Shown here piece by piece: positions 3,525 to 60,090 of a stretch of DNA of 64,000 nt (positions are counted from its first letter, which is position 1; every line of letters begins with the position of its first letter). Position numbers and translations under genes: made by a program. The notes beneath the pieces are model-generated. The model worked only from the letters and a program-made list of their open reading frames with translations, was not told the DNA's origin and did no database searches. The stretch covers positions 1-64,000 of the forward strand of contig JAUCBJ010001093.1 in NCBI GenBank assembly GCA_032718475.1. Direction: 5' to 3'. Source of the DNA: Nemertoderma westbladi. Its lineage: Eukaryota; Animalia; Xenacoelomorpha.

Positions 3525-3529
3525 TGCAT

Positions 3530-6315: not shown

Positions 6316-6318
6316 TAA

Positions 6319-10395: not shown

Positions 10396-10690
10396 AAAAT
10401 TTATTACTTAGACTTACCTTTTTCGGCGGACAAAATGTCCTATATTTTTCGTAATTTATGGGATAGCCTATTTCGTGCAATACTTACCGGAACCTGTAGT
10501 TACTGTATGGTTTGGTGCAATTTTTCTTGTGGTAGTTGGGTTGGGTTTATGTAGCACTAAAATCGATTTGGTATTTTGTTTTGTGTTTTTTGATGGGCCT
10601 AGTGCCTGAGTACTAACAGTGGCCCAAGTGGCCCTAAATGCTAGGTAGTATCTGAGGGAATAGACCCCATGTCCTATTTTATTGTTTTAA
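10396..10690 (+). repeat. Dispersed repeat of about 290 bp; second copy at 21928-22206
   Basis: Near-identical TTTTCGGCGGACAAAATGTC...GTGGCCCAAGTGGCCCTAAATGCTAGGTAGTATCTGAGG at both sites. Confidence 0.85.
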
Positions 10691-12306: not shown

Positions 12307-12759
12307 AAGGGGTGTAGGCCGAAGTGAATTAATTGATAACCTACACTACTGGTTGCAAACTGACTGATTGGAAACTGCAACCTGTAGGCGCTACAACGGT
12401 ACATTCTGCTTTTTATTTTGGGTGTTTACTTTCTGTTTGACGATTTGAGTTTAGAGAACATACTGGCCGTCCGGTACCTACCGGTAGCTTCTGCATTTTG
12501 ATTTCACTTTCTCTTTGACGATTTTAGTTTGTGCAGCGTAACACGGTAGGCATCTTCCCGGTAGCCTACCACGGTACATTTCTGTACTTATTTAGGATTT
12601 TACTTTCTGTTTGAGGTTTGACGAGAGCAAAAAATGGTAGGTTACATTTAAATTAGTAGGTGCGAGTAACGGTACATAGATTTCACATTCTGTTTACCTA
12701 AATATTTTAGCTGTGGTCTATTGTATTGCAAACCAGTACTGCAGTATAACCGATTAGAC

Positions 12760-21925: not shown

Positions 21926-22364
21926 CTAAAAATTTATTACTTAGACGTACATTTTCGGCGGACAAAATGTCATATATTTTTCTTAATTTATGGGATAGCC
22001 TATTCGTGCAATACTTACTGGTACCTGTAGTTACTGTATGGTTTGGTGCAGTTTTCCTTGTGGTAGTTGGGTTGGGAGCACTAAAATCGATTGGTATTTC
22101 ATTTTTTAATAGGCCTTAGTGCCTGAGTACTAACAGTGGCCCAAGTGGCCCTAAATGCTAGGTAGTATCTGAGGCAATAAGACCCCTTTCCTATTTTATT
22201 GTTTTCAATTTTCTTGGCATTCCTGTTCCTTTGATCTCTGATCTATCCCTGAAAAATAAGTCTAAGATTGACTATGGATACCAGAGGCCTATGTGTGGAC
22301 AAAGTCGGTCTCTTGGTTATTAGGACAGTTGTTGTATGTGATTAATATCCTTCTGCACTGTATT

Positions 22365-25300: not shown

Positions 25301-25712
25301 AATATCCCCCGCTATTATAATTTGCTGGCATGATGAATCTTCTATTATATTAGATAGTAGAGCACATTCTTTCAGATAATCTGCACGATTGCCATTGAGT
25401 CCACAGTCACTCGGCATATATACACCAATAATGACAACATTCTCACTAAAGCAACCTTTAACTGAGGTACCAACTGCCCTGTCAGAGTCAGTTTCTATTC
25501 TAGAGCAGTATGGGAATATGGTTTCTCTTATGAATATGGCCACCCCACCTTCTACCCGAATCCTTAATTTCGGAACATAAATTTGATTTGATACAGAGTA
25601 TATACATTTATACCCTTGTGGTATTCTTTGGGGATGAAAGTGAAATATAGCTTGTCTAGCACTAAGAAAGTGTTCTTGCAAAACGAGAATGTCTGGATTG
25701 TCTTTAATTAAA
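22365..25712 (-). mobile_element. Same LINE family, copy B (5'-truncated; APE, RT, 3' UTR), inverted relative to copy A
   Basis: The APE region is nearly identical to 20903-21920. RT motifs GSYRVISVISIVTKVWE, LDLSSAFDTV, SYADDILL (near 23995-24013) and CDFLG are present with several frameshifts. A probable (TGAAA)n tail lies near 22365-22383. Confidence 0.85.
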
Positions 25713-25717
25713 ATTCG

Positions 25718-29582: not shown

Positions 29583-30419
29583 CTGCAATAGTGACAACGA
29601 ATTTCAACAATAATGTGCATCAAATAAAGTTATTTACATTTATATTCCACTCTTTTGTTTTACCTTTTGTTTGTTAGCAAAATTGACTCTGTGTAATGTT
29701 AATGGAACGGTAGCAGCTAGGCTAACGGACTTCGCATCTAGAGTCAGTGCAAAGAGCTTAAACCGTTACCACAGTCGGACAATAGACTTATTGTGTCACA
29801 TTATGAGTCAATGGCGCAAAATGACAGCAAAAAATTGAAAAAAATTAGTTTAGTTTAATTAAAAACATTAAGAAAAAGGAGCAGGTTACAGTGGCGGTGT
29901 TTTCTAACCAAAACAATAAACGATTCTTTATTTCCCTTGCGGTAAATTTGAGCTGAAGATCACAATTTTCACTTGCGGTAAATGTGCGCCACTATATGCA
30001 TATTACAATAAATAATATGCATTATATTAAAACATGATAATAGATAACTAGTGCGACCTCAACTGTTTACGATAGAAATTGCAGACTCTCTCAAAACAAA
30101 ACAATTTATCTATCTGCCATTGTAATATATTTCGCTTAAACTTACATCTTCAGTTATTGAGCAGATCGTAATTTCAAATTTCTCGACAGGAAATACATAA
30201 CTGTAAATCCTAACCAACGACCAAGTCCTGAAATACAAAAATATCCCTTCCAGATTAGGAAACATAAAAATTCCCAAAATAATTATTTAACACAAGTATC
30301 CCATTCTCCATTTTTTGTGTGACCAAATTATGTCCCACATCGTCAACCAGGACAATTATGTCCCAAATAATTATATCATAGATAATTCATTACAAGTACA
30401 AGACAAATTTATAATTATA

Positions 30420-32310
30420 AGTTGTGTGGACAATTTTCTAAGTTATGCACACAAGATACTAAGTTGTGCACAGACGATACTGAGTTGTGCACACACGATA
30501 CTGAGTTGTGCACACAAGATACTGAGTTGTGCGCACAAGATACTAAGTTGTGCACACAAGATACTGAGTTGTGCGCACAAGATACTGAGTTGTGCGCACA
30601 AGATACAAAGTTGTGCATATAAGATACTGAGTTGTGCACACAAGATACTAAGTTGTGCATACAAGATACTGAGTTGTGCACACAAGATACTAAGTTGTGC
30701 ATACAAGATACTGAGTTTTGTACACAAGATACTGAGTTGTGCACACACGATACTAAGTTGTGCACACAAGATACGCACACAAGATACTAAGTTGTGCACA
30801 CACGATACTGAGTTGTGCACACACGATACTGAGTTGTGCATACAAGGTACTGAGTTGTGCGCACAAGATACTACGTTGTGCATATAAGATACTGAGTTGT
30901 GCACACAAGATACTAAGTTGTGCATACAAGATACTGAGTTGTGCACACAAGATACTAAGTTGTGCATACAAGATACTGAGTTGTGTACACAAGATACTGA
31001 GTTGTGCACACACGATACTAAGTTGTGCACACAAGATACTGAGTTGTGCACACACGATACTAAGTTGTGCATATAAGATACTGAGTTGTGCACACACGAT
31101 ACTGAGTTGAGCACACAAGATACTGAGTTGTGCACACACGATACTGAGTTGTGAACACAAGATACTAAGTTGTGCATACAAGATACTGAGTTGTGCATAC
31201 AAGATACTAAGTTGTGCATACAAGATACTGAGTTGTGTACACAAGATACTAAGTTGTGCATACAAGATACTGAGTTGTGCACACAAGATACTAAGTTGTG
31301 CATACAAGATACTGAGTTGTGCACACAAGATACTAAGTTGTGCATACAGGATACTGAGTTGTGCATATAAGATACCGAGTTGTTGTGAACACAAGATACT
31401 GAGTTGTTGTGCACACACGATACTGAGTTGTGCGCATAAGATACTGAGTAGTTATGAACTCAAGATACTGAGTTGTTGTGCACACAAGATACTGAGTTGT
31501 TGTGAACACAAGATACTAAGTTGTGCATACAAAATACTGAGTTGTGCATACAATATACTAAGTTGTCCATACAAGATACTGAATTGTGCACACACGATAC
31601 TGAGTTGCGCAAACACGATACTGAGTTGTGCACACAAGTTACTGAGTTGTGCACACACGATACTGAGTTGTGCACACAAGATACTGAGTTGTGCACACAA
31701 GATACTGAGTTGTTGTGAACACAAGATACTGAGTTGTTGTGCACACAAGATACTGAGTTGTTGTGAACACAAGATACTAAGTTGTGCATACAAAATACTG
31801 AGTTGTGCATACAATATACTAAGTTGTCCATACAAGATACTGAATTGTGCACACACGATACTGAGTTGCGCAAACACGATACTGAGTTGTGCACACAAGT
31901 TACTGAGTTGTGCACACACGATACTGAGTTGTGCACACAAGATACTGAGTTGTGCACACACGATACTGAGTTGTGCGCACAAGATACTGAGTTGTTGTGA
32001 ACACAAGATACTGAGTTGTTGTGCACACAAGATACTGAGTTGTTGTGAACACAAGATACTGAGTTGTTGTGCACACACGATACTGAGTTGTGCGCACAAG
32101 ATACTGAGTTGTTGTGAACACAAGATACTGAGTTGTTGTGCACACAAGATACTGAGTTGTGCACACACGATACTGAGTTGTGCGCACAAGATACTGAGTT
32201 GTTGTGCACACAAGATACTGAGTTGTTGTGCACACAAGATACTGAGTTGTTGTGCACACAATATACTAAGTTGTGATATAAGATATGAAGTTGTGCGTAC
32301 AAGATATTAA
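30420..32310. repeat. 21-bp tandem satellite, with 24-bp variants in the right half
   Basis: Unit CACAAGATACTGAGTTGTGCA, roughly 85-90 copies. It produces the spurious repetitive ORFs in the track. Confidence 0.95.
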
Positions 32311-42596: not shown

Positions 42597-42781
42597 CTAG
42601 AACAATTACAATACAATTTATGTGTTGTTATACAGACAATACGTTGTCTCTACGGAATTGGGATCGACCGAATTATTCGGTTCGACTGTATATCAGCTGT
42701 CAGACTGTATAGTATCTTAACCTTGCAGTAGCCTACCAGGCCTAAAGAAAGAAAAAGTAACGAACGACTGAACTATCAACA

Positions 42782-44101
42782 ATGGGTTCGGCTTCACAGC
42801 CAATGCCAACCAGCATGGAGGAAGACCAGGTTGATAGATGCGATATAACGTTTGTAGATAGCACGCTCTCTCTCCTAATGCAGGGATTATCGTCGAATCT
42901 GTCAGGTATGGTACAGGAATCTTGCCTCGCAAGATTTAGTCCTGCAGAAATTGCGTTCGCTAAAGATAAACTGTTTACAGCATGTGGCTTTGACCCTATT
43001 GAAAGAAAGGACTCAGCTACTCGTACAGCAGTGAAGGCGAATGTTGCTGATATTTATGACAAACTGCATTCTATGGACAAAACCGGAAGCCTTCCATTTA
43101 TTGTGGTTGGCGTACTGGAGGCGCTCTCGCTCCCAAATCTATCCAAATCTCCTAGTTCTCTTGGGTACTCGGAAGCTCGTGTTAAGTTAGGTCTAATGGA
43201 GGACAAGTTCGACAAGTCCATTCGCGCAATGAGTGACAAATTAATTAAACGACATATTTCCCTCGAGTCTACAGTCCAAAGTTTGATGCTTTCAGAAAAA
43301 TCCGAGAATAATCTCACTGCACCCCCTGAGGTAGGGTGGAGTGTCAATGGTGCCTTAGCAGGTGTCCAATCATACCAATCCTGTCCCAGTTTCCCGTATC
43401 ATGAAGCCCTAACAGCTGCTGTTCATAATCGTTCCGACAGTCCAGGTACTCGCTGTTCACCCGGCAGTCAGGGTGCTCGACCGAAGGTTAGTGCTCAGAG
43501 ATCTTATTCGCCTGCTCCGGATTTGCGTAAACCAACTGCACCTTCAGCTGCCCTTCGTTCAAACCCATATAATCCGCTTTCTGATTCAACACGGGGCAGC
43601 GCCAATCACCCTAGAGCCGCATCCATAGGAGATGATGGGAAGGCAACTAACGTTCAACCAGACGTCCAGGAAATCCCTGTGGACGAGGGCGGTCCATTTT
43701 ATTTTCAGCATAAACAGAGGCATAAACATGTGATTGGCACTGGTGGTAAGGGCGGAGCCGGATCGGTAGGAGTTTCCACTCATAAAACTCGAACAGCTCC
43801 TGCTAACACATTTGTCTTCCGCATTCACAAGTCTGTAACTCCTGCAGATTTAGTTTCTGATCTCGGAGAGTGTGGAATCACGATCCTAGAATCGGACATA
43901 GAAAAGAAATCTCACAGCGAGACGAGATCTAATAGTTTTATGATTTCAATTCCTCGTGATAACTACGAGAAAGCTCTTTCTCCAGATACTTGGGAAGATG
44001 GCATTTGTGTTCGCCCTTGGCACTACTATAGTCGTAACTCGAAAGGAGTTCAAGATTCGCATGATCGCAATAATAGGAGAGGTGCTAGTATTGTAGGTTG
44101 A
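42782..44101 (+). CDS. LINE ORF1 (CR1-group nucleic-acid-binding protein)
   Basis: Open 439-aa ORF with N-terminal FSPAEIAFAKDKLF..DIYDKL..LP and C-terminal RRM-like FVFRIH..SFMISI..PDTWEDGICVRPW, directly upstream of the APE-RT ORF2. Confidence 0.8.
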   Translation: MGSASQPMPTSMEEDQVDRCDITFVDSTLSLLMQGLSSNLSGMVQESCLARFSPAEIAFAKDKLFTACGFDPIERKDSATRTAVKANVADIYDKLHSMDKTGSLPFIVVGVLEALSLPNLSKSPSSLGYSEARVKLGLMEDKFDKSIRAMSDKLIKRHISLESTVQSLMLSEKSENNLTAPPEVGWSVNGALAGVQSYQSCPSFPYHEALTAAVHNRSDSPGTRCSPGSQGARPKVSAQRSYSPAPDLRKPTAPSAALRSNPYNPLSDSTRGSANHPRAASIGDDGKATNVQPDVQEIPVDEGGPFYFQHKQRHKHVIGTGGKGGAGSVGVSTHKTRTAPANTFVFRIHKSVTPADLVSDLGECGITILESDIEKKSHSETRSNSFMISIPRDNYEKALSPDTWEDGICVRPWHYYSRNSKGVQDSHDRNNRRGASIVG

Positions 44102-44584
44102 TATACTTTTATTCAGGTTATTTATTTTTATTAATTTCTTTTTTTTTTAATTACAATGGCTAACCTCAAATCCAACTGTTGTAAATAATAATTTTTGTGT
44201 TTCATCATACAATAGTACTGGTCTATCACCTGATAAACTTGTTTTTATAAATGCGCTATTAGCAGGCAGTGATATTGTTTGTTTACAAGAACACTTTGTG
44301 CTAAGTGACAATAGTCACAGAATAAAGTCGGCCTTTGCTGACTATCAATGTATTATACAACCTGCTACATATCCAGTTAACGAAATCAGATCAGGCAGGC
44401 CTTTAGGTGGTTTATGGTTTACTTTTAGGAAGGCTTTATCGAAATATGTTTCTAGAATAAATGTGACTAATCTGCGACTGCAAGCATTGCAATTACGTTT
44501 GCCTAATGTAAAACCGTAAGTCATAATCAACTTATATTTTCCAGTTGATTCACATGATAATAATATATCTGATGATCTTCTTAC

Positions 44585-45124
44585 TGTTAGCTTATTCAAT
44601 CCCGCTAACACCCCATAAAGTTATAAGCCGATAAGCAATATTGGGAGCCACGAGATTGGGTAATTAACCAACTCGTGCCATCCCAATAAGAATGGGAAGG
44701 AGAAGCACACAATGAGGGTCAGGGGCCAAACCCCTAACCCAGAGAGAATAGGTGGAGTGAACGGGAACACTCCAAAGGGCGCCAACAAGGGTATCAACCA
44801 ATCAGAGGGGGGAAAGGCATCGATTAGGTAGAGTAACAAGGCCAACCGTGCAATATAGCCACTTGGCAGTAATAATACCAATTCAGTTATCTCAGTGCAA
44901 TACCGGTGCTAGATTAGGTTACATAGTTTTAGATAGGGAAGGACCGGGACTTTAGTTACCGTATCCCGTCTTCCATGTACGACAATATTATATCTATATC
45001 TATATCTATATCTGCATATCATATTATATACAACAAACAGCACAAACTCATTTACTCTTTATGCACGGCGGGGACGCGTGAACTAAAACCGGATAAACCG
45101 GGATCCCTCTTGGATCCCGTCACA
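44585..45124 (+). repeat. 5' LTR (540 bp)
   Basis: TGTTAGCTT...CCCGTCACA; direct repeat of 55846-56385 with two substitutions seen by eye. Confidence 0.97.
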
Positions 45125-45192
45125 GTAACTAAACCAGCTGCCGCCCTAGATAAACTCTGTAACCACCAGCCACCAAAATCTGCAGGGGAAAG

Positions 45193-48100
45193 ATGAGTCA
45201 GTCGGGTGAGATAACACCGACGCGGACCCCGGACGAAGAGCTAACGATCCGCGAGGCCGCAACCAGGCGATATAGGCCCACGACGCCGGACCCATCGGTA
45301 ACGGGTCATCCGGCAGTTCAGGACGAGGGGGGCCTGGAACCCGAGGTCCAGCCGAGAGGAAGAGAGAGCGAGACGGAGGGAAAAGGAGACGAGTCGACAC
45401 GGGACGGGGGTCGACGCACCGGTGTCGCCGGCCAGCCACAGGCCGAGGGCGACGAGCGGCCCACCGAAACGGCGACGGTGGGGCCGACGGTGCGGCCCCA
45501 GACGCAGAGAGACAAAGGAGATATCGGTACCGATGTCGCCGGCCAGCTACAGGCCGAGGGCGACGAACGGCCCACCGGAACGGCGACGGTGGGGCCGCCG
45601 GTACGACGTCGAACCCGGAGAGACGGACGAGGGGTCGGTGACGAGGACGTCGGGGTTTCTGAGCGACTTCGACGGGCCTACAACGCGACCCGGAGACTAC
45701 TAGAGGAGGCCAGAAAGGGGAAAACGATAGACGAGGTAAAACTGAAGTCAGGACTATGTAAGTCGGACAGACATTTATACTATCTAATGCGTTTCGGGCA
45801 GAGAGAATTGGCCGAGGAGAGAGCGAGAAAGGTTGCCGAGGAACTGTATGACTCATGGCGGCATGGGGGTATACAACCTAGTGTAGTGTACATAGGGCCA
45901 TATTTAATCGATGCCCGGGGTATAAAATTAATGGGTTGGAACAGACCTGAAGGGGGCGAATCCGAGGTTAACCCCGAGGATTCGGCCTCGTCGGTCGGAG
46001 GGAGTTCCGGGAGGAGGGGGAAAGTTAGTAGGTCGGGAAGGTGGAGGGAGTCCGTCGTAACCGATAAGTCTGCTACATCCTCCGCGAAAGAAAGACTGGT
46101 GAGAGAGGCAGGTGCCGCGTACCGTCTCGAGCTGATAGAGCAAGGTCAGAGGGAAATTGATAAACGGCTAGAGGAGGGGAGAATGCGGCTAGAGAGGGAA
46201 GCGGCATTGATTAGAGAAACCGGAGAGAGGGCCGAAAGGGCTTTGAGAGGCCTTAGGGAGTGTGAGGAAATAGAGGAAAAGGAGTGTAGGGAACGTGAGG
46301 CGAGAGAGGAAAGGGAACGCAAAGAGCGCGAGGCGGAACGCAAGGAGCATGAGGCGAGAGAGGAAAGGGAACGCAAAGAGCGCGAGGCGGAACGCAAGGA
46401 ACATGAGGCGAGAGAAGAAAGGGCACGCAAGGAGCGTGAGGCAAGGGAGGAAAAGGAACGCAAAGAGCGTGAGGCGGAACGCAAGGAGCATGAGGCGAGA
46501 AAGGAAAGTGAACGTAAGGAGCGTGAAGCGAGGCGAAGGGAGAGTGCTAGGAAAGTAGTAGAGTTGGCTGAGCGGGACACGCGGGAGTGTGAGAGGAGAA
46601 TGGCAGGAGCCGAGCGAGACCATGAGGAATTAAAGAGACGCCAAAGTGAGCTTGGGGAACATAGGGTTAGACGCGCGCACGAGCTGCAACTGGTGCGGGC
46701 GGGGGCGTCTGAGAGCGAGACAGGCTCGAGTATTTTAGAGGAGCCAGGGGCCGTGGATACATTTATTAATACCCCACTTACAGGGACCGCACGACAGGCC
46801 CAAAACTGGTGTGACCGTACGGGCGGGCGGGGGGGGGGGGGGTAATAATGATAATGGTACAGTAGACGTGGTTAATATTAATAGTACCGTATGGGATAAT
46901 TCTAATCAAACCTTTATTGCAGGAAATACTTTGCCTAGTGGTAGTAATTTAAATTTAAATCAGAACAATCTTAATATTAATGTAGAAAATAATCCTAATA
47001 TTAATGTAGCTACGCAAATTAATCAAAATAATCAAAATAATAATAATTCAAATAATTTAATTAATGAGCCAAGCCCGAATTTACAAGATAATTCAAATGA
47101 TTTTATTTCGAACGAACAAATTAATTCTGTATCCGATATGGGTGCTATTAACGTAAACACGTCGGGCGTGTACAGCCAGGCAAACGGGGACCTGGCAGGC
47201 CACACAGTTGGTGGGCCAGAAGTAGCTGGGTTAGGTAGACCCAGCGAGGGCCTGGTAGGCCACGTAGTTGGTAGACCCAGCGAGGGCCTGGTAGGCCACG
47301 TAGTTGGTAGACAGGGAGCAGAGGGCCTGGTAGGCCACGTAGTTGGTAGACAGGGAGCAGAGGGCCTGGTAGGCCACGTAGTTGGTAGGCAGGGAGTGGC
47401 TGGGTTGAATAGACCCAGCGAGGGCCTGGTAGGCCACGCAATAGCAGAGGGAGAGGCGGGGGTGAATAGACCCGACCGCGATAGGGTCGATGTGTCGACT
47501 AGAGAGGGATATAGTAGCGTAGTGAGGGATAGCGAAGTTAGATGTGGCGAGTGGGGGGGGGGGGGGGGGCTACAGGGGCCCCACAACAGCGAGTTAGCGG
47601 CGAAAGGGGGGGGGGGGCAGAGAGTGTCCCACAGCCGTCAGCGGATAATGCGAGGGCCAAAATAGGTAAACCGCAACAACCGGCGACGGAAAGTAATAGG
47701 GGGATTGCGAGTATCCCCAGCAGCGTGCGACCGAGCAGAGAGAGACAGGTTGACGTCGTAAGAGGGCGGACGAAGCGTCGAGCCCGATCAGAAGAGGGAA
47801 GAAGAACAGTGGGGTTTAACCGGGAGGTCGACGAGAGATCTCACGAGCGGGAATACTCCACTGAAAGGAGAAGAAGAGAAGACAGTAGTAGAAGTATCGC
47901 CGCGAACGATAGAAGAGCGAAGACGGATAGCGAGCCGTCGGTAGTCGAGATGAGAACAGAGAGTCAGTGGGGTCGGACTCCGGGAGATTGCCGTCGCCCC
48001 GGAGAGATGCAACCCGGCGAGGCGCACTACGCGCCGAGAGAGGGGTACGCGATGTACCGGTGCGAAGATGAGAACAGTAGAGAGGGGGGTCGAAGAGAAA

Positions 48101-51100
48101 CTTTCCGACGGAATATACCTACCGATCGAGAATACGGTAGCCGCGGGTTGGATTATTCGAGAAGAATAAACTTCGATCCCGAACAACACATGCAGACTGT
48201 AGGACATACTGTAGGCCTTACTGCACATACCGTAGGCCATACTGAGAGAGGCAATGTAGGCGATAGGATAGCGTGGACAACGGGATTAAACCCGGAAGTC
48301 GCGGAATACATACCGGCGGGTAGGCCAGAAGCTGATAGGCCTATACCGGTACCAGTACAGCAGTATGACTACAGCATGCAGGGACATAACATATACCCAG
48401 GGGAGGGGGGAATTATTGCGGATAGGTGCATGGGCCCCAACATATTAACATCAACCCCAGTACCAAACATACCGGTGGGGGGGGGGGGGGGGGCGACAGG
48501 GTGACATTCCCCCATCACAATATCAACAATATACCCCGATAGGAGCAAGAACAACGAGACCCTTGGATGAGAATAGGTCGTGTGATACAGACATATGGAG
48601 GGGGCCGCTACCCCCGATGACATACCCAAGTCAGAGGAAGTCAAGAAATAGGACAGACGGAACGCACCAGACAGGAGAAACTATACAGCATCCGTCGAAC
48701 CCATTGGAAGCGCAGGCGATGGGGATGGCCACGTTGATCGATGCGTTGAAAACGAGGATCGAGCTACCACCCGTGGAACCATTCAAATTCGATGGGAGTA
48801 GGCCGGAAGAATATCTACAGTTTCGGCGCATGTATAGTAACGAAATACTAACAAAAAACTTGACGCAGGCGGAGTGCCTAAAGTATCTGCAAGTGTACAC
48901 GGGAGGCCCAGCATACGATATCGTGAGGCAGTATCAAGGAATAGAGGGCGGCTTCACGACAGCATGGCGGGCACTGGATAGGGAATACGGGCACCCGGCC
49001 AAGATCATCAGGCAGACGCTGAGAGGCATAACATCGGGTGGCCTACAGGATAATCCCGTTAGCATTAAGACGTTCGCTAACAAAGTCGAAAAGGCGCTAA
49101 TCGTGCTGAAGACGCTAGACGCGCCGTACGAGCTCAATGCGTCCAACAACATCACCACGATAGCGCAGGCACTACCAAACTGGCTGCGCAACAAGTGGAG
49201 GAAAATCGCCTTCTCCACTCGAGATAAGAAGGGTGCGGAACCGGGTTTAGAAGAAATGTCAAAGTTCTTAAACTACGAGGCTGAGCTAATAACTGACCCA
49301 GTCTATAGCGAAGACAGCCTGGGAAAGGGACCGAAGACAGACTACCATAGACCGAAACCAGAGCACAACACATCAAACGCATTACCGAGACTCAGGCAAT
49401 CATTGCCATATGCAGCGACGCAGGGGACTGCAAGTCCACAGCTAGCCGAGGATAAGACAACACCATGGAATGGACAGGGAAACAATAACAACACGAATAA
49501 ACATAACCCCAGTACGTCCAGTAGGCTAAATCCAAACAATAAGAATAGTAGGGACTTTGGTACAAACGCAGCTGCGATACGCAATGCACTGTATAAAGAG
49601 GGCTACGACCCAAAGAGCAAATGCCAGCTACACGCAAATGCGCTTCATCAAACCATGAACTGCAGGTACTGGCAGGCGCTACCTAGGCAGGATCAGATAG
49701 ATTATGCGTTCAGCAATAAAATCTGCTCGCGATGTGTAATGAGTGGATATAGAGCAAGGGAGTGCAAGGAGAAGCCAATAAAATTTGGTCAAAGGAGAGG
49801 CCAAACGATGGCGACCAGCACAGTAGGGGCGAAGAAGAGGGGAACGGTGTTACTTGGAGTAGTACCAGTGCGAGTGATCGGGGAAGGCAATCGATCAGTA
49901 ACAACACTAATGCTGGTTGATAGTGGAGCTGCCTTCACATTAGTCGAGGAATGGGTGGCCGAGGAGATAGGATTGAGAACGAGGCCAAGCAGGATGGCGG
50001 TAACAACCATCTCTAGCAAAGATGAGATCCTGGAGATGAGAACAGGACGGTGCGCAATTGCAGCAATGACACCAGGATGCAACTATGGGGCAACCATCGA
50101 CCCCATCCAGGTGATAGAGTCAATTAATATTAATGCCAGGCGACCAACCAACATCGAGGTCGAGCAGTATAAATTCCTGGACGACATTGACTTCTCAATC
50201 CCAGACGTGGACGTTAGGAAGGTGTCCATCATAGTAGGCATGGACTGCCCAACGGCCCACGAAAGAATGCAAACGGTCTTCGGCGAAGACAAGCAGAGTG
50301 ACCCGGTGGCCATATTAACACCATTCGGGTGGACACTGACAGGCCCAATTAAGAGCAATATACCATTCCATGTGTCCGAGAGTTCAGGATGCATGGTGCC
50401 AGGAACTGACGAGATAGAGGAGAGGCCAGAGATGGGCAATAGTGGTAGACAGCTAGAAGTAGAAGCAACACCAAGAGAGTGGGCGGAGGAGAATGGTATG
50501 GATACAGAAGATCTAGAGACGATGGGTTGGAATAAGGGTCCCAGCAAGTATCGGTATGGAGATGGAGAGGAGCGGACGGTGGAGTGTCGGGAGGACAAAC
50601 CGGAGAAGTGTCCGGTGGAGTGTCCAGAGGAGCGTCCGGAAGAGACGCCGGTCCGGTTGAGAGGCATACCGACAAGGGGGAAGCCGAGTAAGAATACAAG
50701 ATGGAAAGGGAGAAGATGTGAGACGATCAGACCAGGGGCAGAGAAGCCCATGAATAAACATATGGTGGACAAAGGAGCCGGGAGAGTAGGAGGCGTGCTG
50801 CGTACGCACGCGGAACTGACAGAGTGCGAGGGGGCATTACATAGGCAGACATCGTGTATACCGAAGGACGAACGGGGGTCGTTGAAGCCTTTAATGCCAG
50901 CACACATATTAAGGGGGAGGCCAGCAGAGGTGGCATCTAAGATTAAGGAGAAGAACAGGGGCGGCATTATACCGCCGGGTGACACGTTGAAGGGTGGCAC
51001 TTTGCCGCCAAGGGACGACCACGAGATCAGAAACATAAATAACAGACAGCATTTGCAAAAACAGGAGAAAAGACCACCTATCGAATTGACAAGGAGAGCG

Positions 51101-51220
51101 GAGCGAAGAATTAGAGAACCTATAAGGGGGCAGTGGGAGAGTTGCCTGCTGGAGGAATCACCCCTTGGGTCGCTGAGTTGTCCAACAGGTTGGACTGGGA
51201 TGGAAGAGTTACATCCGTAA
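45193..51220 (+). CDS. gag: BEL/Pao Gag-protease polyprotein (about 2000 aa if three G-run frameshifts are corrected)
   Basis: Four ORFs switch frame at G homopolymers. Motifs: ELPPVEPFKFDG (DUF1759-like gag), CQLHANALHQTMNC and CSRCVMSGYRAREC knuckle-like motifs, protease MLVDSGA..IIVGMD, and the BEL-typical PVAILTPFGWTLTGP. Confidence 0.8.
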
Positions 51221-51399
51221 AAGGTGCGGGCAGAGGTGTTACCTGTCTGTTAGAAGGGGCACCTTAGTAGAGTTACAGAAAAGTTTAGTCGTCCAAGTTT
51301 TGGACTGAGGGGGGTGGGATTGAGGGCGAGACGCCCTTCCCACAAACAAAATAATAAAATAAAATAAAAAAAATAGTACATGGTAGGTACGCAGTCAGT

Positions 51400-52100
51400 A
51401 GGCAGAGAGTTAGTTAGAAGGTACGTAGTACCTAGTTAGTTAGTTAGTTAGGAGGTACGTAGTACCACCAGTTAGAGAGTTAGTTAGAGGGTACGTAAGT
51501 ACCGTTAGTTAGTTAGTTAGTTAGGAGGTACGTAGTACCGCCAGTTAGAGAGTTGGTTAGAGGGTACGTAAGTACCGTTAGTTAGTTAGTTAGCTAGGAG
51601 GTACGTAGTACCGCCAGTTAGAGAGTTAGTTAGAGGGTACGTAAGTACCGTTAGTTAGTCAGAGAGTTAGAGGGTACGTAGTACCGCTAGTTAGTTAGAG
51701 TTAGAGGGTATGTAGTACCGATAGTTAGTTAGAGAGTTAGAGGGTACGTAAGTACCGATAGTTAGTTAGAGAGTTAGAAGGTACGTAGTACCGATAGTCA
51801 GTTAGAGAGTTAGAGGGTACGTAAGTACCGCTAGTTAGTTAGAGAGTTAGAGGGTACGTAGTACCGATAGTTAGTTAGAGAGTTAGAGGGTACGTAAGTA
51901 CCGCTAGTTAGTTAGAGAGTTAGAGGGTACGTAGTACCGATAGTTAGTTAGAGAGTTAGATGGTACGTAGTACCGCTAGTTAGTTAGAGAGTTAGAGGGT
52001 ACGTAAGTACCACTAGTTAGTTAGAGAGTTAGAGGGTACGTAAGTACCGTTAGTTAGAAGAGTTAGAGTTAGAGGGTATGTAGTACCGTTAGTTAGAAGA
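51400..52100 (+). repeat. Internal tandem array (about 19 units of about 36-37 bp), each with a GGTAC-GTA(A)-GTACC hairpin
   Basis: Unit approximately GTTAGTTAGAGAGTTAGAGGGTACGTAAGTACCGCTA, between gag-pro and ORF3. Confidence 0.9.
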
Positions 52101-52582
52101 GAGAGAGTAAGAGGTAAAAGGGGATATAGATATAGATATTAGTTAGCAGTTAGTAGAGAGAGGGGGGCATATGAGTACAGCTGGGTAAGTCGTGTGGCCA
52201 CACGACCCATACTGCTGCACTGCCATACCCACAGAGTAGGCCAGAATGTGGATTAGAGAATAGAATAATCCATAGGCAGTAGTAAGTAGTAGGACAGCAG
52301 AATCAAATTAAATAGATAAATAAATAGAATAGGGCTGAAAGTTGTAAAATAGTGGCAACACAAGGGAAGTTATTCTAGAACATAATAAAAGTAACGGACA
52401 GAAATTGTAAATTACGCTCATTTACTAGCTTCAAAATTAATTAGGAATAATTTAGGTTAAAAGGCGCAGTTAAGTAGGAAATAGGCCATTATCGAACCGT
52501 ACAGAACATCTTAGATACATCACTCATCTGTATTGCGCCTTGGTAAGGCACCACCTTGCAGGTGAGCGAGTGAACGTTCAGA

Positions 52583-55135
52583 ATGGCGAGTAAGTTGATC
52601 AGAAAGAGAAAAGCGGAGTCAGGAGGAAAGGAGATACTGGTGGATTTCACCGAGAGACATCCGGAAGAGAAGACGAGAGGATACTACGAGAGGTTGGAAA
52701 GGGGTCACGCGGCGCGAGCGCTGCAGGATCACTTCAGGGAGATGCACGAACAGCGGCTGGTCGGGACCTATGGGACGCCGTCGCTGGACAACGCGATCTT
52801 CCAACACTTCCACTACGTGGTGAAAGGGGACGAGGCGAAGTTCGGGATTCCGAAGTACCCGAAGGAATCACCGAGGAAGGACTGGAAGAGATTCATAGAG
52901 TCCGTCAACAGAGGAGGATATATGATCCTAGACGACGAGGGAACCGTGGAAGACGAGGCGGGTTCGAGACGAGGAACGGCGGGGTCGGCCAGGACCATAC
53001 TCCTACATTTGGCCGCGCCAAATGGGGACATCTTCTTATTCGATCTAGGAACGTATGGGAAGAAGGACGGGCTGAAATTAAACCGGTTACCGAAAGCGGT
53101 ACAAGTCTTAGTAAGAGAGAAGTCGACGACGAAAGTGGGATCGGCGATTCGCGAGGACGCGGAGAGGATCATCGGTCCGGACGCCACCAACCTCCTGGAT
53201 ATGCAGAAAGTCTTTATGGCTATGACGGCACCGGATGGGTTGGGGGTAGTCGAAAACACAGGCCAATGCGGGGCGGTGGCGATGGGCCAATTATTGGGGC
53301 TCGTATGCCACAAACCGATGGACTGGGGGAAGTTTAGGGAAGAATACGGAGCAGAACTAGCGAACTCGCTAAAGTGGGGAGCGAGACCGGGAAAGCAGGA
53401 GGTATATCAGTTCCGCAGGGGAGCGATAAAGGTATATCAGAAGCGATATATCCTGCAGGAGGACTGGATGATGATAAGTTTGCTCAACTTATTCATGACC
53501 GTGGTTATCGAGAGGGAACCAGGGGCATTTCTGTTATCGGGATCACCCCTAAGCTACAGGAGAGCCTTTAAGACGGCCTTTGACGGTCTGGTAGACCACC
53601 CGGGGCTGAAGGGCGAGTCGGTGTACTACAACAGCCGACATCTGGTAGACGGGGAGACAGATACACCGTATCAGAGATGGGAGCAGCTAGAGACGGATAG
53701 ACGAGAAGCAAAGCGACTGGAAGAAGTCACTAGACGGGAGAGGATAGAAGCAGAGGAGAGGGAAGAGGAGGCCAGGACACAGAGTTACGGCTTCGAGGAA
53801 CAGGCAGGCCTAGACGAACTTCATTGGACTTCATCAGGGAGTTCGGGGGAGTCTCTAGGGCGAGAATTGGGATGGACGGTGGGATCGCCGAAACAGTCGA
53901 CGTCGGGGTTGCAAACGATGCCCATACCAGCGGGCGCCGAGGGCGACCAACCGCCAAGGAAGTTAAGGGAGCTGGAGGGATGGAGAGCTACGGGCGAGAG
54001 CCAAGGCGGGAAGGGACATAGTGGATCCATCGGGATACCGGGGTTGGAGACACTGCCAGAAGAAGAGGAGGACGACGACGACGAGTTCGGAGAGATGCCG
54101 CCCATCGAGAGGATAGGCCACTCGGACACGGACTGGGTTGGCGGAAGGGTGGTGACGGCCAGTGGGGCGAGGGCCTTCTGGAACAGATCCGGCAAGCGGA
54201 CCTGGGTGCACGAGGACCCGGCGATGGATTTCGCGGGGAGCACCATCAGGTTGGGCGAACAACCGGGGACGGCACCACGGGTAGTATTCGGGGAGACGAT
54301 GCCCGAGAGGGGCGGAGAGATCGACGTAGATAGAGAGACCAACGTAGAGAAGTTCGCCTACCAGCGACTCCACAGACCGCGGAGATCGCTTGGGACGAAA
54401 GACGAGGTGGGACGGGAGACATTGGTACTCGGCTGCGACTACTGTGGGAGACAGACCCATCGGGAAAGCAGCTGCCTATACCGGTTCCAAAAGGGAACCT
54501 TTTGTCTCTACTGCAGAGAACCAAGCCACAGGATGGGGGCGTGTCCACGGTTGCATAACCGATGTCCAAAGTGCCACTTTCGGGGACACTACGGACGCGA
54601 GTGCGACTGGATGAACGACGATGAGAAGTTCACAAGATTCGAGGAGTGGGCCGACGTCGGGGCCATGACGCGCCAGCGCATGAAGGCCCAGGAGTTCAAG
54701 TGGGGTTTCTTCCTTATCAATCAGGAGACTCACATGGAAATCATAAAGCGGAGGCTACCGTTTACCTACCAAGAGGTAGCAACGGCGGCGTCATACACTG
54801 GAGTGATGAACACGCAAAGGTATTTGGACAGGTGGACGCCTGAGAACCGAAGGGAGTTTAGGGATTTCTTGGCAGAGCACGTACCAAAGGCAATGAAAAT
54901 GATCCTATGGGACGCCACCAGAGGGAGACAACCGGGCCACTCTGAGGGGCCACCGGCGAAGCGATATCGGGCACTAATAACACCAGCGCCCAAAGAGCCA
55001 ACGACCGGGATCAGCAGGGAGGTGGCGGCGAAGGTCCAAAAGCAGAAAGCGGATGATGCCAGAGGAACGGTGATAACCAAGAAACGACCCAGGGAAGAGG
55101 ACGCCAGGGGGAACTATCCCCAGAGGAACAGATAG
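52583..55135 (+). CDS. ORF3: DEDDy (DnaQ/RNase D/WRN/mut-7-like) 3'-5' exonuclease domain plus three CCHC zinc knuckles
   Basis: Open 850-aa ORF. ExoI-like ILDDEG, LLHLA..IFLFDL, LP..V..LV, ExoII-like KVGSAIRED, LLDMQ and ExoIII-like YQKRYILQED. Knuckles are CDYCGRQTHRESSC, CLYCREPSHRMGAC and CPKCHFRGHYGREC. Confidence 0.75.
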   Translation: MASKLIRKRKAESGGKEILVDFTERHPEEKTRGYYERLERGHAARALQDHFREMHEQRLVGTYGTPSLDNAIFQHFHYVVKGDEAKFGIPKYPKESPRKDWKRFIESVNRGGYMILDDEGTVEDEAGSRRGTAGSARTILLHLAAPNGDIFLFDLGTYGKKDGLKLNRLPKAVQVLVREKSTTKVGSAIREDAERIIGPDATNLLDMQKVFMAMTAPDGLGVVENTGQCGAVAMGQLLGLVCHKPMDWGKFREEYGAELANSLKWGARPGKQEVYQFRRGAIKVYQKRYILQEDWMMISLLNLFMTVVIEREPGAFLLSGSPLSYRRAFKTAFDGLVDHPGLKGESVYYNSRHLVDGETDTPYQRWEQLETDRREAKRLEEVTRRERIEAEEREEEARTQSYGFEEQAGLDELHWTSSGSSGESLGRELGWTVGSPKQSTSGLQTMPIPAGAEGDQPPRKLRELEGWRATGESQGGKGHSGSIGIPGLETLPEEEEDDDDEFGEMPPIERIGHSDTDWVGGRVVTASGARAFWNRSGKRTWVHEDPAMDFAGSTIRLGEQPGTAPRVVFGETMPERGGEIDVDRETNVEKFAYQRLHRPRRSLGTKDEVGRETLVLGCDYCGRQTHRESSCLYRFQKGTFCLYCREPSHRMGACPRLHNRCPKCHFRGHYGRECDWMNDDEKFTRFEEWADVGAMTRQRMKAQEFKWGFFLINQETHMEIIKRRLPFTYQEVATAASYTGVMNTQRYLDRWTPENRREFRDFLAEHVPKAMKMILWDATRGRQPGHSEGPPAKRYRALITPAPKEPTTGISREVAAKVQKQKADDARGTVITKKRPREEDARGNYPQRNR

Positions 55136-55807
55136 GTTCCCAGAGTCGAGGGAGAGAGACTGGGACTTGGACGTGGTACGCCTGAAAGGCGCCGCGTGGG
55201 ACGTACGAACTATTAAGTACAAAATTTAATTAATGCAAATAATCATATAAGTGCAATTTGTATGTACGTATGTAGCAATTAGTAATCTACGAATATATAC
55301 GCTGGGAGTAAGTACTATAGTCATACAACCTTTCTCAATTAGCTACTGGGACTGGGGGATAACTGACTATGGCACTATGGACGAGACACCAGACAATTTC
55401 ACACTTCTTGAGTGCGACGGCACAAGAGGGGGGGGAGATTCGTCAGAAGGGATGAGGCAGTCGAAGTGAGGTTGAGGGACAGAGTAGTAAGTGCGGAGTG
55501 CGGAGAGAGTGCGGACGCAATTCTAGTGTGGGGGGGGAGAATAAGAGGCTGAGTGAGGGACGAGGAGGTCCGGGTGTATGGGAGAGTCAGGATGAGAGTG
55601 AAGAAGAGATAGGGCGGAAGTGTTGGGGAAACAAAAGTTGCGTGAGAGGTGAACGCGATCGGCCCGACATGAGACGCCAGGCACACAGGGTAGCATTATC
55701 ATACCCATAGGGAGCGGCCTGGAAAGCCGGCTCCGAGAGAAAAGAATTCCACCCCACACCCGATACTAGATCGGGATCCAGCGGGATTGTAGCGCACTTT
55801 TTGGTTG

Positions 55808-55845
55808 ATGCTATCTTCTTACCGGGAAGATAGCATGGGGGGGAG
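55808..55845 (+). promoter_or_regulatory. Polypurine tract preceded by an 11-bp-stem hairpin
   Basis: ATGCTATCTTC-TTACCGG-GAAGATAGCAT, then GGGGGGGAG directly abutting the 3' LTR TGTT. Confidence 0.85.
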
Positions 55846-56385
55846 TGTTAGCTTATTCAATCCCGCTAACACCCCATAAAGTTATAAGCCGATAAGCAAT
55901 ATTGGGAGCCACGAGATTGGGTAATTAACCAACTCGTGCCATCCCAATAAGAATGGGAAGGAGAAGCACACAATGAGGGTCAGGGGCCAAACCCCTAACC
56001 CAGAGAGAATAGGTGGAGTGAACGGGAACACTCCAAAGGGCGCCAACAAGGGTATCAACCAATCAGAGGGGGGAAAGGCATCGATTAGGTAGAGTAACAA
56101 GGCCAACCGTGCAATATAGCCACTTGGCAGTAATAATACCAATTCAGTTATCTCAGTGCAATACCGGTGCTAGATTAGGTTACATAGTTTTAGATAGGGA
56201 AGGACTGGGACTTTAGTTACCGTATCCCGTCTTCCATGTACGACAATATTATATCTATATCTATATCTATATCTGCATATCCTATTATATACAACAAACA
56301 GCACAAACTCATTTACTCTTTATGCACGGCGGGGACGCGTGAACTAAAACCGGATAAACCGGGATCCCTCTTGGATCCCGTCACA
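55846..56385 (+). repeat. 3' LTR (540 bp)
   Basis: Direct repeat of 44585-45124, followed by the TSD CTTAC. Confidence 0.97.
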
Positions 56386-56390
56386 CTTAC

Positions 56391-59300
56391 AGTTAGTTAT
56401 TAATGATAATAAAGATATTATTTTATCAGTTAATCCGTGTAATATTTTAATCACAGGTGACTTTAATGCCGATTTTACTCGCGCTAGGGCGCATTGTAGT
56501 TTAATTAATAAATTGTTACAGGAATTTCAATTAGAGCGCCTCTGTGATTTAAACCCTGTTGATTATACATACACTTGTTTCAGAGAAAATTTAGTTTTCC
56601 AGTCTACGTTAGATCACTTTTTTAGTAATTTTATATTTTTTGATTTTTTTTTTTTTTTTTGCAAGATAACGGTGAGCTGATTCATGATCATACTCTAGTT
56701 AGTAATTTATTTAATAATTATTTTACTAATGTTGCCTCTAATTTAGTTAAGAAGTTACCGTTATCAAGTAATAAATATTTATAGTAATATATATTCGAGC
56801 AAATTCAAGACAATTAGCATAGCACAAATAGTAAGGGGTAATTTCTTTATATTTCTTAAATTTCTTTGTTCTTCGTCTCTATAAGGGAAAATAATTTTAT
56901 ATTTTTTGATAGTATTTTAGAGTCCAGTGTAATACTAATCTATCATCCCACTGTCCAATATTCCTCAAGGTAGATTTAGACTACTCCAGTGCACAACAGG
57001 AAAACTGTGTTAATTCCGCCAATAATACTCAAAAAACTAATGTTAAATATAATCAAGCAACCAGTGCTCAGCAAGACGAGTATAGAAACCATTTATTTTC
57101 CAATTTAAGTGTTATAGCCGAAACGGTGCCTATTTGTGTTTCATGTAGTGATATTTTCTGTACTGATAGTGAACATAGATTATCTATTTAAAAATACACT
57201 TTAGATATTCTAGATTGTATAGATAATAGTAGTAAATGTTTAGTAAATAATAGTGGTAATGGGGGGTCTCCTTTTAATCATCCCATTCTCGCCGGCTGGA
57301 CTGAGCATGTGAAGCCATTTAGGGATGAGTCTATGTTCTGACATTCCCTGTGGGTGTCCTCGGGTTGTCCTAATGCTTCCGTAAACAGTCATTTATTTCA
57401 CATGCGATGGATCTCTCGGGCTCAATACAAGTATGTCATTCAAAGGTTGAAACGCTCAGTTGATAATGTGCGTCGCGATAAGTTGATTGATGCTTGCCTG
57501 AGAAATAATACCAATATTTTTAAGGAGATTAAGATACTCCGTTTTACTCCAAGTATCATGAGCTCAACCATTGATGGTTGTACTGATCCACAGTCAATTG
57601 CTAACCGGTTTGCTGGTATTTGTACAATCAACCCTATGGATCTGATGTAGAGTCACTCATGAAAGAAATCTCAGCTAAGTTAGCGGATTGTCCACCGGAC
57701 GTCATTCCCCATGTCTTTCCGGAATTGGTCACAGAGGGTCTTCATAGAATCAAAAGTTGTAAATCGGATGTAATCTTTGGTTTTGATTAGGACTGTCTGA
57801 TCCATGGTCCTCCAGAGTTGTGTTTACAACTTAGTGATTTGTTTAATACTTTTCTCACGCACGATTTTGTCCCTCAATTTCTATCGAGTTGCGTAATAAT
57901 TCCTTTGATCAAGGATAAGCTTGGAGACGATGCTGTCTCCAGCAATTACCGCACCATCGCGTTGTCATCAATCTTGATTAAATTGTTCGAATGGGTGATG
58001 CTTCTTTCACAAGCGGATCATTTGAAGTTAGACGAACTTCAGTTCAGATTTCAGAAAGGATCTAGTACAACTCATTGTACCTGGGCAGCTACTGAGGTAA
58101 TCAGTTTCTATTCTAGAAATTCTACTCCTGTAGTTGGCTATATGCTTGGAATGGTGTAAGTTGTTTCTTGAACTACTCGAGAAAGGGTTTTCCCTATTTT
58201 TCCTTCGGACCTTGTTATGGGTATATAGTAATCAATCATGCGTTGTTCGCTGGAACAATGCGAATTCTGAGTCAATTAAATTGTCTAACGGGGTTCGTCA
58301 GGGTTCAGTGGCATCACCAATTCTCTTCTGTATACTACTTGATAAACTGATTCATAAATTAAGGAACTCAAAAATAGGTTGTTACATTGGTTTAGTCTAT
58401 TTGTGGAATTCTCGTTTATGCAGATGATCTGTTATTGATCGATTATATTGATATTGATTGATTGATTGTTGTGTCCATCCATCGTAAGACTACAGTACAT
58501 GGTGAAGCTATGCGAAGAGTTCGCTGCCAAGCATAAGCTAATATTTAGTACGAATTCAAATCCTGACAAGTCAAAGTCAAAGTGTGTGGCCTTTGACAAG
58601 GTATGGCAGGAGCCTTTGGTCTCCATCGTATTGAATGGGACGTCCCTTCCATGGCTGAAAGAAGCTCTGCAACTTGGTAACCTTCTTGACTTCAAAAATT
58701 CAATGGAGCCTGATATTTTGTTAAATGGTGGGAAGTTTTTGGGCAAATTTAATTCATTAAGGGGGGGGTAGCGCATTTTCTGACCAAAAAGACGAATTTT
58801 TGAAACATGTCCTATCTGATGCAGAATTTCATGCTGAATCCAAATATGGAAACCGTTTTCCGATATCTTGCTTAGTTTTCGAGATATCTTGGATAGAAGA
58901 TACTAGCTCCGATATATCGCGATATCGGTAAAGGCGATGAAGTTCGGGGTTTTCATTCAATTCAAATTTCTGTAAATTTCTGTGCCCAGTGGTGCCAATT
59001 GGATGTCTCCACGAGAAAGAGCACAAAATTTTAATTGAGAAGGTATTTTTTTATGATTATTGGACCTACTGATCAGTTTATAAGACAACTTCAAGTCTCC
59101 GGAATGAAGACTGGACTCGAATAAGTGACTCTGCAGTCTTTGCGCGATTACACGGAATAGACTTATTGGTCATTGGAGATCTTAAAAATGTATAATCTCC
59201 AGTTCTAGTGGTCGTACGAAGTTCGTTTTAGGCTCATTCGAAAGCTATTTTCTTAGAGAACAAAGTTACCATTTGATTTAAGACAAAATGGTTGTACAGC

Positions 59301-60090
59301 AACATAACATGAATTTGGGTAAAATATGCCTTGCAAATTTTGTTCAAGTTATGATTGCTCAGGCAGCTTTCAAGAGTTTGCCAAACCAAATGGTAACTTT
59401 GGTCTCTGAGAAAAGAGCTTTCGAATGAGCCTAAAACGAACTTCGTACGACCACTAGATTATACATTTTGTAGATCTCCGATTACCGATAAGTCTATTCC
59501 GTGTAATCCCGCAAAGACCGCAGAGTTGCTTATTCGAGTCCCGTCTTCATTCCGGAGACTTGAAGTTGTATTATAAACTGATCAGTAGGTCCAATAATCA
59601 TAAAAAAATACCTTCTCATTTAAAATTTTGTGCTCTTTCTCATGGAGACATCCAATTAGCACCACTGAGCACAGAAATATGCAGAAATTGAATGCAAACC
59701 CCAAACTTCATCGCCTTTACCGATATCGCGATATATCGGAGCCAGTATCTTCTATCCCAGATACCTCGAAAACTAAGCAAGATATGGGAAAACGGTTTCC
59801 ATATTTGGATTCAGCATGAAATTCTGCATCAGATAGGATATGTTTAAAAAATTCGACTTTTTGGTCAGAAAATGCGCTACCCCCCCCCCCCCCCTTAACA
59901 CAAGAATTTTATTATTCAGATCCGTTTGTGCTTTGTAACATTCAGCGCACTTACTGTACGTACATCCTTCTATGGTAGTAATCTTTGGGACCTCTTTTCC
60001 TCATCTTGTTCTAGAATTTTTAGTACTTGGAATATTAATGTTAGGATAATATTAGGGTTACTGTATAATTCACACAGGATTATTGTTGAA
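56391..60090 (+). pseudogene. Remainder of the LINE ORF2 (APE C-terminal part and RT), with many stops and frameshifts
   Basis: ITGDFNAD, YTYT..STLDHF, IIPLIKDK..SNYRTIAL, QFRFQKGSSTTHC, GVRQGSVASP, FSTN..KSKCV and FYGSNLWDL. Confidence 0.85.
58761..59894. mobile_element. Foldback MITE, Kolobok-like (TTAA TSD, GG...CC ends)
   Basis: TTAA at 58757-58760 and 59895-59898. About 500-bp inverted arms start GGGGGGGGTAGCGCATTTTCTGACCAAAAAG. The element is inserted in the LINE RT region. Confidence 0.88.

Follow-up and report, generated by a model that had tools for sequence, protein, structure and literature searches.

Why would a retrotransposon that has lost its own polymerase keep a third gene open, and what might that gene do? 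The question arises from a BEL/Pao-derived long terminal repeat (LTR) element in the xenacoelomorph Nemertoderma westbladi, found in positions 1 to 64,000 of contig JAUCBJ010001093.1 (assembly GCA_032718475.1, forward strand), the whole of which we call the window. In the env position, between the LTRs, lies an open reading frame (ORF), here termed ORF3, that codes for a predicted DEDDy-type 3'-5' exonuclease domain and a domain with three CCHC zinc knuckles. Here, we report that ORF3 follows pol in a broad set of BEL/Pao relatives, is inherited together with it, is under purifying selection, and is present in the recently inserted, pol-less copy of the window. We propose, as an explanation with close to an even chance of being right, that ORF3 encodes an accessory protein that binds RNA of the element itself; the knuckle domain would be its core, and the nuclease a trimmer or, when catalytically dead, a scaffold.

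Layout of the ORF3 protein

ORF3 runs for 850 codons without a stop, and its main parts are as follows.

52583..55135, + strand: ORF3, 850 aa; exonuclease domain, coiled and acidic disordered linker, triple-knuckle domain, basic ends
52772..53638, + strand: predicted DEDDy-type 3'-5' exonuclease domain (aa 64-352), from profile and fold searches
52931-52933, 52937-52939, 53156-53158, 53447-53449 and 53459-53461, + strand: predicted active-site codons D117, E119, D192, Y289 and E293, respectively
54434..54922, + strand: triple-CCHC knuckle domain; knuckles at 54434-54604, then a conserved helical part

A preliminary description of this locus, made from the letters alone, had listed DxE, KVGSAIRED and YILQED motifs, three CCHC knuckles, basic termini and the lack of a transmembrane segment, and each of these is found in the protein. 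DxE begins at 52931 (D117-D-E119), KVGSAIRED occupies 53132-53158 and YILQED 53447-53464; the pattern CX2CX4HX4C starts at 54434, 54503 and 54563; basic clusters stand at aa 7, 793 and 834; and the highest 19-residue hydropathy is 1.3, hence no membrane segment. Neither the signal peptide nor the membrane anchor of an env protein is present, and all strong fold matches are to exonucleases.

Word-indexed protein searches with ORF3 gave no relatives (0 of 3,342, 0 of 7,989 and 0 of 17 candidates). An exhaustive phmmer search (E <= 0.001) returned 72 proteins, which with few exceptions align to aa 610-750, and the N-terminal nuclease domain is also present in 31 of the 38 phmmer relatives of at least 440 aa. 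No relative was found in viral contigs, by protein or by pattern. Supplied with a 35-sequence alignment, AlphaFold2 predicted two confident domains (about aa 70-310 and 620-780) separated by a disordered linker of about 270 aa (mean pLDDT 64, pTM 0.48).

All 35 aligned proteins have every Cys and His of the knuckles in place, and the three knuckles belong to a larger conserved domain, with an LH motif between knuckles 2 and 3 and a WGF motif at 54701-54709. An Atlas feature search assigned this domain to no named family, giving only leads below 0.9 (DUF8363, zf-CCHC). In one homologue (P0002) the knuckle/WGF domain is duplicated and ExoI is degenerate.

Predicted fold and active site of the exonuclease domain

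Is the N-terminal domain a nuclease? A profile built from 12 homologues, with the window protein excluded, scored aa 93-314 at 99 bits, which places the match beyond chance. Against this stand the lack of any Pfam match for the window protein by itself and its single-sequence fold prediction, which gave no usable model (pLDDT 31). For aa 70-310, the block pLDDT of the AlphaFold2 model is mostly 76-95 and falls to 56-61 in three places, and Foldseek ranked T. brucei RNase D (E 1.5e-5), Nibbler, Egalitarian, Rrp6 and EXD2 at the top. A wide structural search gave the Nibbler EXO domain at Z 13.8 (rmsd 3.3, 203 residues aligned), WRN and the apicoplast polymerase exonuclease at Z 13.0 each, counted as tied with Nibbler, and the Pol I exonuclease at 11.7; matches in a viral structure library were also DEDDy exonucleases. 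At the sequence level, the family profile matched EXD2 (E 2e-15) with ExoI-III aligned and with D117, E119 and D192 on the EXD2 motifs, the ExoIII match alone being weak (2 bits), and family profiles also matched WRN, Egalitarian and both domains of T. brucei RNase D. PF01612 was matched by 3 of 41 family members (best E 8e-7), the window protein not among them, and 24 of 30 Atlas matches (up to 0.94) went to clusters where 34% carry PF01612. The DnaQ/DEDDy fold that had been suggested from the motifs is therefore what Foldseek, the structural search and the profile comparison with EXD2 returned, and aa 64-352 is predicted to adopt the DnaQ-like fold of the RNase D/WRN/EXD2/Nibbler DEDDy group.

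Across 79 non-redundant rows, the window residue recurs in 46 at D117, 49 at E119, 41 at D192 and 52 at Y289. The preliminary description had left ExoIII between YxxxE and YxxxxD; YxxxE is the reading to adopt, since the E293 column holds Asp in 43 and Glu in 22 of the 79 rows and D294 is not conserved. The ExoIII pair of the window protein is accordingly Y289 and E293, where most relatives have Asp, and its motif is D-E-D-E; five more relatives combine this Glu with a site that is intact in its other positions.

ORF3 is inherited with BEL/Pao pol

A degenerate knuckle-motif pattern matched at least 120 stretches (about 250 estimated) in metagenome contigs, many with common accession prefixes and no taxon label, and none in viral contigs. 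The flanks of 80 of these loci were examined. The knuckle profile scores in 79 of the 80, and a BEL/Pao pol domain lies upstream in 47; among the 32 loci with no upstream pol, most contigs end too close upstream. Reverse transcriptase (RT), RNase H and integrase are all present in 28 of the 79, and each classifiable neighbouring pol is BEL/Pao. When 59 large neighbouring ORFs were considered, six were omitted as ORF3 pieces or alternative frames, and the 53 searched against Pfam gave Peptidase_A17, DUF5641, DUF1759, RVT_1 and integrase matches and no gypsy- or copia-specific family. A TGG-type primer site is present wherever the LTR-gag junction is visible.

Distances between ORF3 proteins follow those between pol proteins (31 loci, Spearman 0.87; 0 of 2,000 permutations as high), and of the 16 pol splits with strong support the ORF3 tree recovers 12, its sole conflict joining long branches (both are quick LG+G4 trees with no outgroup). 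The correlation and the shared splits together indicate that ORF3 was inherited with pol; the window's gag-protease and ORF3 are long branches that the trees leave unplaced. On these sequence comparisons, a broad BEL/Pao lineage whose pol is intact carries ORF3 as standard. The preliminary description had allowed that ORF3 might be a routine, already catalogued part of BEL families: it proves to be standard in this lineage, but the full-text literature searched gave no BEL/Pao record of it. The search for loci started from the knuckles and would have passed over any version with the nuclease alone.

Three of the relatives (L004, L037, L044) have very long ORF3s of 1,400-1,600 aa with a large unrecognised N-terminal part. 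Another locus, L017 (about 5200-11000, element orientation), is an older copy that retains gag-protease, ORF3 and a remnant of the integrase tail but no RT or RNase H. We considered it as an independent, propagating pol-less lineage and found this unsupported, given an identity of 79-92% between its LTRs, the 5' one of which has lost its end.

Dead and nuclease-less versions, and evidence of selection

Does the protein need its nuclease? All 17 pol-tree rows that lack ExoI form a single clade (SH-aLRT 100), here called the dead clade, inside which DxE is kept in 0 of 21 rows (6 gapped rows set aside). Outside it, the four acidic residues are kept in 40 of 52 ungapped rows, and the tyrosine too in 37. 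The dead nuclease domain has dN/dS of 0.035-0.39 in 7 of 8 pairs (one pair being dS-saturated), like the intact domains (0.04-0.49 in 8 pairs), so that a non-catalytic job appears to be under selection. In addition, the nuclease domain is present in 44 of the 47 loci where BEL pol lies upstream; the other 3 (L042, L050, L067), from one pol clade, have the knuckle domain only, combining intact pol and a full knuckle ORF3 with no detectable nuclease domain. Judged by these sequences, two clades do without catalysis, and one of them without the nuclease domain altogether. A dead clade under selection and a nuclease-less clade make it likely that the core job is RNA binding and not cutting.

Selection can also be examined within the host. 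ORF3, whole or in part, occurs in six listed sequencing runs, three of which have at least half its words. Contigs aligning to the element number 37,813 from run X1 and 17,885 from run X3, at identities from >99% to <90%, and summed depth is 8,000-140,000 over the internal region and 4,400-115,000 in LTR bins, against 26 for one flanking contig; the summed depth is no copy number. The element family is large and diverse in its host. Among the 40 nuclease-domain variants listed of 52, 29 are synonymous and 11 replacements (pN/pS 0.11-0.16, p < 1e-7); none is an indel, and the two in active-site codons (D117, D192) are both silent. In the C-terminal part of ORF3, 6 of 11 listed variants are synonymous. 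Outside ORF3, 16 control variants comprise 3 synonymous and 13 replacement changes, a weak control in which many are sites particular to the window copy. The variant contigs are short and not assignable to pol-less or autonomous copies. Selection on ORF3, as suggested beforehand, is hence borne out for the family by the 29:11 variants and the low dN/dS, while for the pol-less lineage itself it is suggested by the decayed pol beside an intact ORF3 in a recently inserted copy.

Might ORF3 instead suppress small-RNA silencing? Such a protein would bind and degrade or over-trim piRNA, siRNA or their precursors, and its dead versions would sequester them or poison trimmers like Nibbler. The closest folds do include the small-RNA 3'-end factors Nibbler and Exd1, and the family is very abundant and diverse in the host. 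T. brucei RNase D lowers the guide-RNA pool when overexpressed (PMC7797062, in excerpt), and arenaviruses use a viral DEDD nuclease against host defence (PMC7968707, in excerpt). However, the loss of catalysis in one clade and of the nuclease domain in another weighs against nuclease-driven anti-silencing as the general reason for keeping ORF3. Furthermore, 2'-O-methyl piRNA ends resist such trimmers, a diffusible product would aid all copies and give a pol-less parasite weak reason to keep the gene, and read-through fusion to Pol would yield little free protein. The rotifer DEDDy ORF3s (see below), as described in the excerpt of PMC5408684, have no clear link to copy number. We judge suppression unlikely, and rate a little lower the fuller scenario in which an old, widespread BEL/Pao lineage swapped env for a Nibbler/EXD2-like nuclease with knuckles, used against piRNA/siRNA and turned into a dead decoy in one clade. 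If true, ORF3 would be a transposon-encoded small-RNA nuclease valuable enough for a pol-less, highly amplified parasite to keep.

The copy in the window

The element that carries this ORF3 has the following parts.

44585..56385, + strand: BEL/Pao-derived element, 11,801 bp
44580..44584, + strand: left target-site duplication (TSD) CTTAC
44585..45124, + strand: 5' LTR, 540 bp, TG..CA; no tRNA-type primer site after it
45193..48504, + strand: gag N-terminal extension, low-complexity, no Pfam match, in three apparent reading-frame pieces
48449..51220, + strand: gag-protease ORF (Pfam); tail after the protease open and unrecognisable
50864..50947 (about), + strand: faint BEL integrase-tail remnant, sub-profile, 4 bits only
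51404..52103, strand not assigned: tandem array, 73-bp unit, 9.6 copies, in the spacer ahead of ORF3
52550..52561, + strand: candidate 3' splice site (by eye), 21 nt ahead of the ORF3 start
55837..55845, + strand: polypurine tract ahead of the 3' LTR
55846..56385, + strand: 3' LTR, 540 bp, TG..CA, 2 mismatches to the 5' LTR
56386..56390, + strand: right TSD CTTAC, a 5-bp duplication matching the left copy

The LTRs differ at 2 of 540 sites (99.6% identical), so an element of this structure inserted recently; it did so in the endonuclease region of a LINE-like ORF, which it splits (LINE motifs recognised by eye). The recipient occupies 42761-44584 and continues from 56391, with a 446-aa ORF1 and a split and decayed ORF2. 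The LTR size lies within the 0.2-1.2 kb of BEL/Pao (Belpaoviridae) LTRs, and the TG..CA ends, short TSD and polypurine tract agree with that group. The gag-protease ORF matches DUF1759 (E 6e-11, about 48788-49204) and Asp_protease_2 (E 2.5e-5, about 49865-50017) in Pfam, and groups among BEL gag-protease proteins on a long branch. No RT, RNase H or integrase core was found in six frames of the element with a profile of 24 related pol proteins, so we file this copy as a non-autonomous BEL/Pao derivative whose pol appears decayed beyond recognition. The LTRs and TSD, the Pfam matches and the empty pol-profile search agree with the BEL/Pao context and loss of pol noted in the preliminary description.

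The pieces of the gag extension join at poly-G runs (near 46820-46845, 47550 and 48480), and together they come to about 1,100 codons, their sequence repetitive, rich in Asn and of coiled-coil type. Just ahead of the protease in the 48449-51220 ORF, no canonical zinc knuckle is left. That the ORF3 knuckles substitute for those of gag was rejected for the family, 25 of 27 scored relatives keeping intact gag knuckles (2-3 each).

Could ORF3 be functional only in autonomous relatives, and a mere passenger in the window copy, recombined in recently or not yet decayed? The scored variants could come from either kind of copy, internally deleted ORF3-bearing copies exist (L017), and the window copy itself has its gag in pieces and no recognisable primer site. 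Against this, pol has decayed (best match 4 bits) yet 850 codons stay open with all five active-site positions kept, the near-identical LTRs mark a recent insertion of the pol-less structure, and the decayed tail and spacer are also at high summed depth, with many variants. We consider a passenger distinctly improbable.

The lack of a primer site raised another option, that the nuclease makes a self-primer of the Tf1 type by trimming back to a 9-nt pairing of the sequence beside the 5' LTR with the LTR. No TGG tRNA primer-binding site was found after 45124 in the window copy, whereas relatives have one, and the 9 nt that follow the 5' LTR (45125-45133) can pair with 44951-44959 inside it, a Tf1-like signature. 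TGG-type sites are present, however, in intact-nuclease relatives (L005, L044, L062, L063, L072) and in dead-nuclease ones, and the 8-nt self-match of L072 is of a kind that occurs by chance and sits beside a normal primer site. We find the idea barely credible and reject it as the family's reason for the nuclease, since the relatives have ordinary tRNA primer sites.

How ORF3 may be expressed

Each frame of the spacer ahead of ORF3 contains about 50 stops, so ORF3 needs a start of its own in the window copy. In addition to the candidate splice site there, L009, L038, L065 and L070 have acceptor-like sequence just ahead of the ORF3 ATG (by eye). Elsewhere, ORF3 is in frame with pol and open from its stop in 14 of 36 scorable loci, when shuffled spacers would give about 2. 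TGA is the stop in all 14 cases, with TGA-C in 12 and TGA-CAATTA in three. These are candidate read-through contexts; a literature search for the motif gave nothing.

In-frame TGA loci: L006, L016, L024, L026, L029, L033, L056, L057, L059, L063, L066, L068, L075, L077

Read-through from the pol stop would place the ORF3 protein in the particle. Two loci (L050, L070) have an in-frame TGA-CTA between gag and pol.

A protein carried in the particle might act on DNA, as an RT proofreader or a cDNA-end trimmer. The WRN, apicoplast polymerase and Pol I exonucleases tie with or closely trail Nibbler, the in-frame TGA junction would tether the nuclease to Pol, and CCHC knuckles, as is established for retroviral nucleocapsid, bind single-stranded DNA too. 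But the dead clade accounts for 12 of the 14 in-frame cases, RT is missing from the window element, and a polymerase-type exonuclease would need neither a 270-aa linker nor a knuckle domain. We hold out little hope for a DNA role.

A proposed role on element RNA

What, then, might ORF3 do? As an accessory RNA-binding protein, it would use its three zinc knuckles to bind RNA of the element itself, and its RNase D-like domain would hold or trim RNA 3' ends or, when dead, serve as a binding scaffold. The element RNA would thereby be helped to survive, to leave the nucleus or to enter particles. The protein would be made from a spliced message in some lineages, the window copy included, and elsewhere by read-through of the pol stop, and the window copy would be mobilised by pol supplied in trans.

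Several points weigh against this role. RNA specificity is not given by the fold, WRN and polymerase DNA exonucleases lying within 1 Z of Nibbler. The four acids kept in 40 of 52 rows indicate that catalysis matters in most lineages, perhaps on a different target. With gag knuckles intact in the relatives, ORF3 is no general nucleocapsid substitute, and the apparent universality of its knuckle domain is partly built in, since the loci and most of the proteins were found through the knuckles. Finally, the 14 in-frame cases are 12 dead-clade rows and one sister pair, and not 14 independent events.

Comparison with known systems

DEDDy ORF3s have a precedent in the Juno/Vesta LTR and Athena/Terminon elements of bdelloid rotifers, where they were called unreported in retrotransposons before (Rodriguez, Kenefick and Arkhipova 2017; excerpt of PMC5408684, repeated in that of PMC5718144); the rotifer precedent named in the preliminary description is thus confirmed. 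There, too, an RNase D-like domain stands in the ORF3/env position with no membrane env features, in the rotifers also with no coiled-coil env features, and in both cases its function is only predicted. For the rotifer genes, the question of element RNA processing versus silencing interference has been raised. The rotifer genes belong to Juno, Vesta and Athena and have a DEED motif, in contrast to a BEL/Pao host and D-E-D-E here; the excerpt describes no knuckle domain, and it presents the gene as acquired repeatedly and recently, in contrast to the deep branches along which ORF3 follows pol here. The ICTV profile of BEL/Pao (PMC8742986) and the excerpt of PMC3118150 name no third gene other than an env-like one, and the word "exonuclease" is absent from PMC8742986, PMC12440569, PMC8556966, PMC6238403 and the excerpt of PMC3118150. 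The full-text literature searched gave no report of a BEL/Pao exonuclease or of a DEDDy ORF3 with this knuckle domain, Repbase/GyDB and supplements, which may hold a record, lying outside that scope; PMC3985635 (in excerpt) served as background only.

In domain order, ORF3 resembles T. brucei RNase D (TbRND; PDB 7C42-7C4C), a DEDDy exonuclease followed by several CCHC knuckles, in which the CCHC domain boosts RNA binding and cleavage (excerpt of PMC7797062). Unlike ORF3, TbRND is a cellular mitochondrial guide-RNA trimmer with four knuckles and a short linker, at 14-16% identity, and the shared two-domain plan may be convergent. Metazoan EXD2, WRN, Nibbler (mut-7), Exd1 and Egalitarian share the fold and ExoI-III layout, EXD2 being closest by profile and Nibbler by structure, but are cellular genes with no ORF3-type knuckle domain, and the window protein differs from them by its Glu at ExoIII. 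The exonuclease domain of Egalitarian is inactive and offers an earlier example of RNA binding through a dead domain.

As for the host element, the window copy is like BEL/Pao in its LTRs, 5-bp TSD, DUF1759 gag and protease, its relatives adding RT, Peptidase_A17/RNase H, integrase and DUF5641 in BEL order; it differs in having no RT, RNase H, integrase or tRNA primer site. In role, ORF3 perhaps resembles CERV of the C. elegans Cer1 element, an ORF3 protein whose enzyme fold is dead and whose Cys loop the element requires to export its RNA (excerpt of PMC10309623). Both are non-env ORF3-region proteins with a basic NLS-like motif, a Cys-rich module and an enzyme-derived domain that need not be active. 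The CERV host is of the gypsy class, and the protein has G-protein-like and ring-forming domains and, in that excerpt, no exonuclease, so the likeness is an analogy of role only.

Other features of the window

The window also holds, mostly ahead of the element, further repeats and reading frames (those marked by eye were recognised by eye).

932-5151: gypsy-like gag and pol frames, broken (by eye)
12670-14157: 495-aa ORF, Crypton-type tyrosine recombinase-like (by eye)
18403-20199: 598-aa ORF followed by LINE-like frames, its motifs resembling those of Ulp1 proteases (by eye)
20900-25715: large palindrome, nearly perfect (97-99% complementarity between its arms), including LINE endonuclease-like frames
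from 26135: long satellite array, 40-bp unit
30313-32300: long satellite array, 21/24-bp unit
58761-59887: palindrome of about 1.1 kb within a decayed LINE RT region

Implications

Few accessory genes of animal LTR retrotransposons have an assigned role, and BEL/Pao replication is poorly studied. Because Pfam misses nearly all members of the family, these ORFs have probably been annotated wrongly as env or not at all. ORF3 offers a conserved, alignable accessory gene with natural site-intact, dead and nuclease-less variants. Through these, catalysis can be separated from binding, and the question raised for the rotifer DEDDy ORF3s becomes directly testable.

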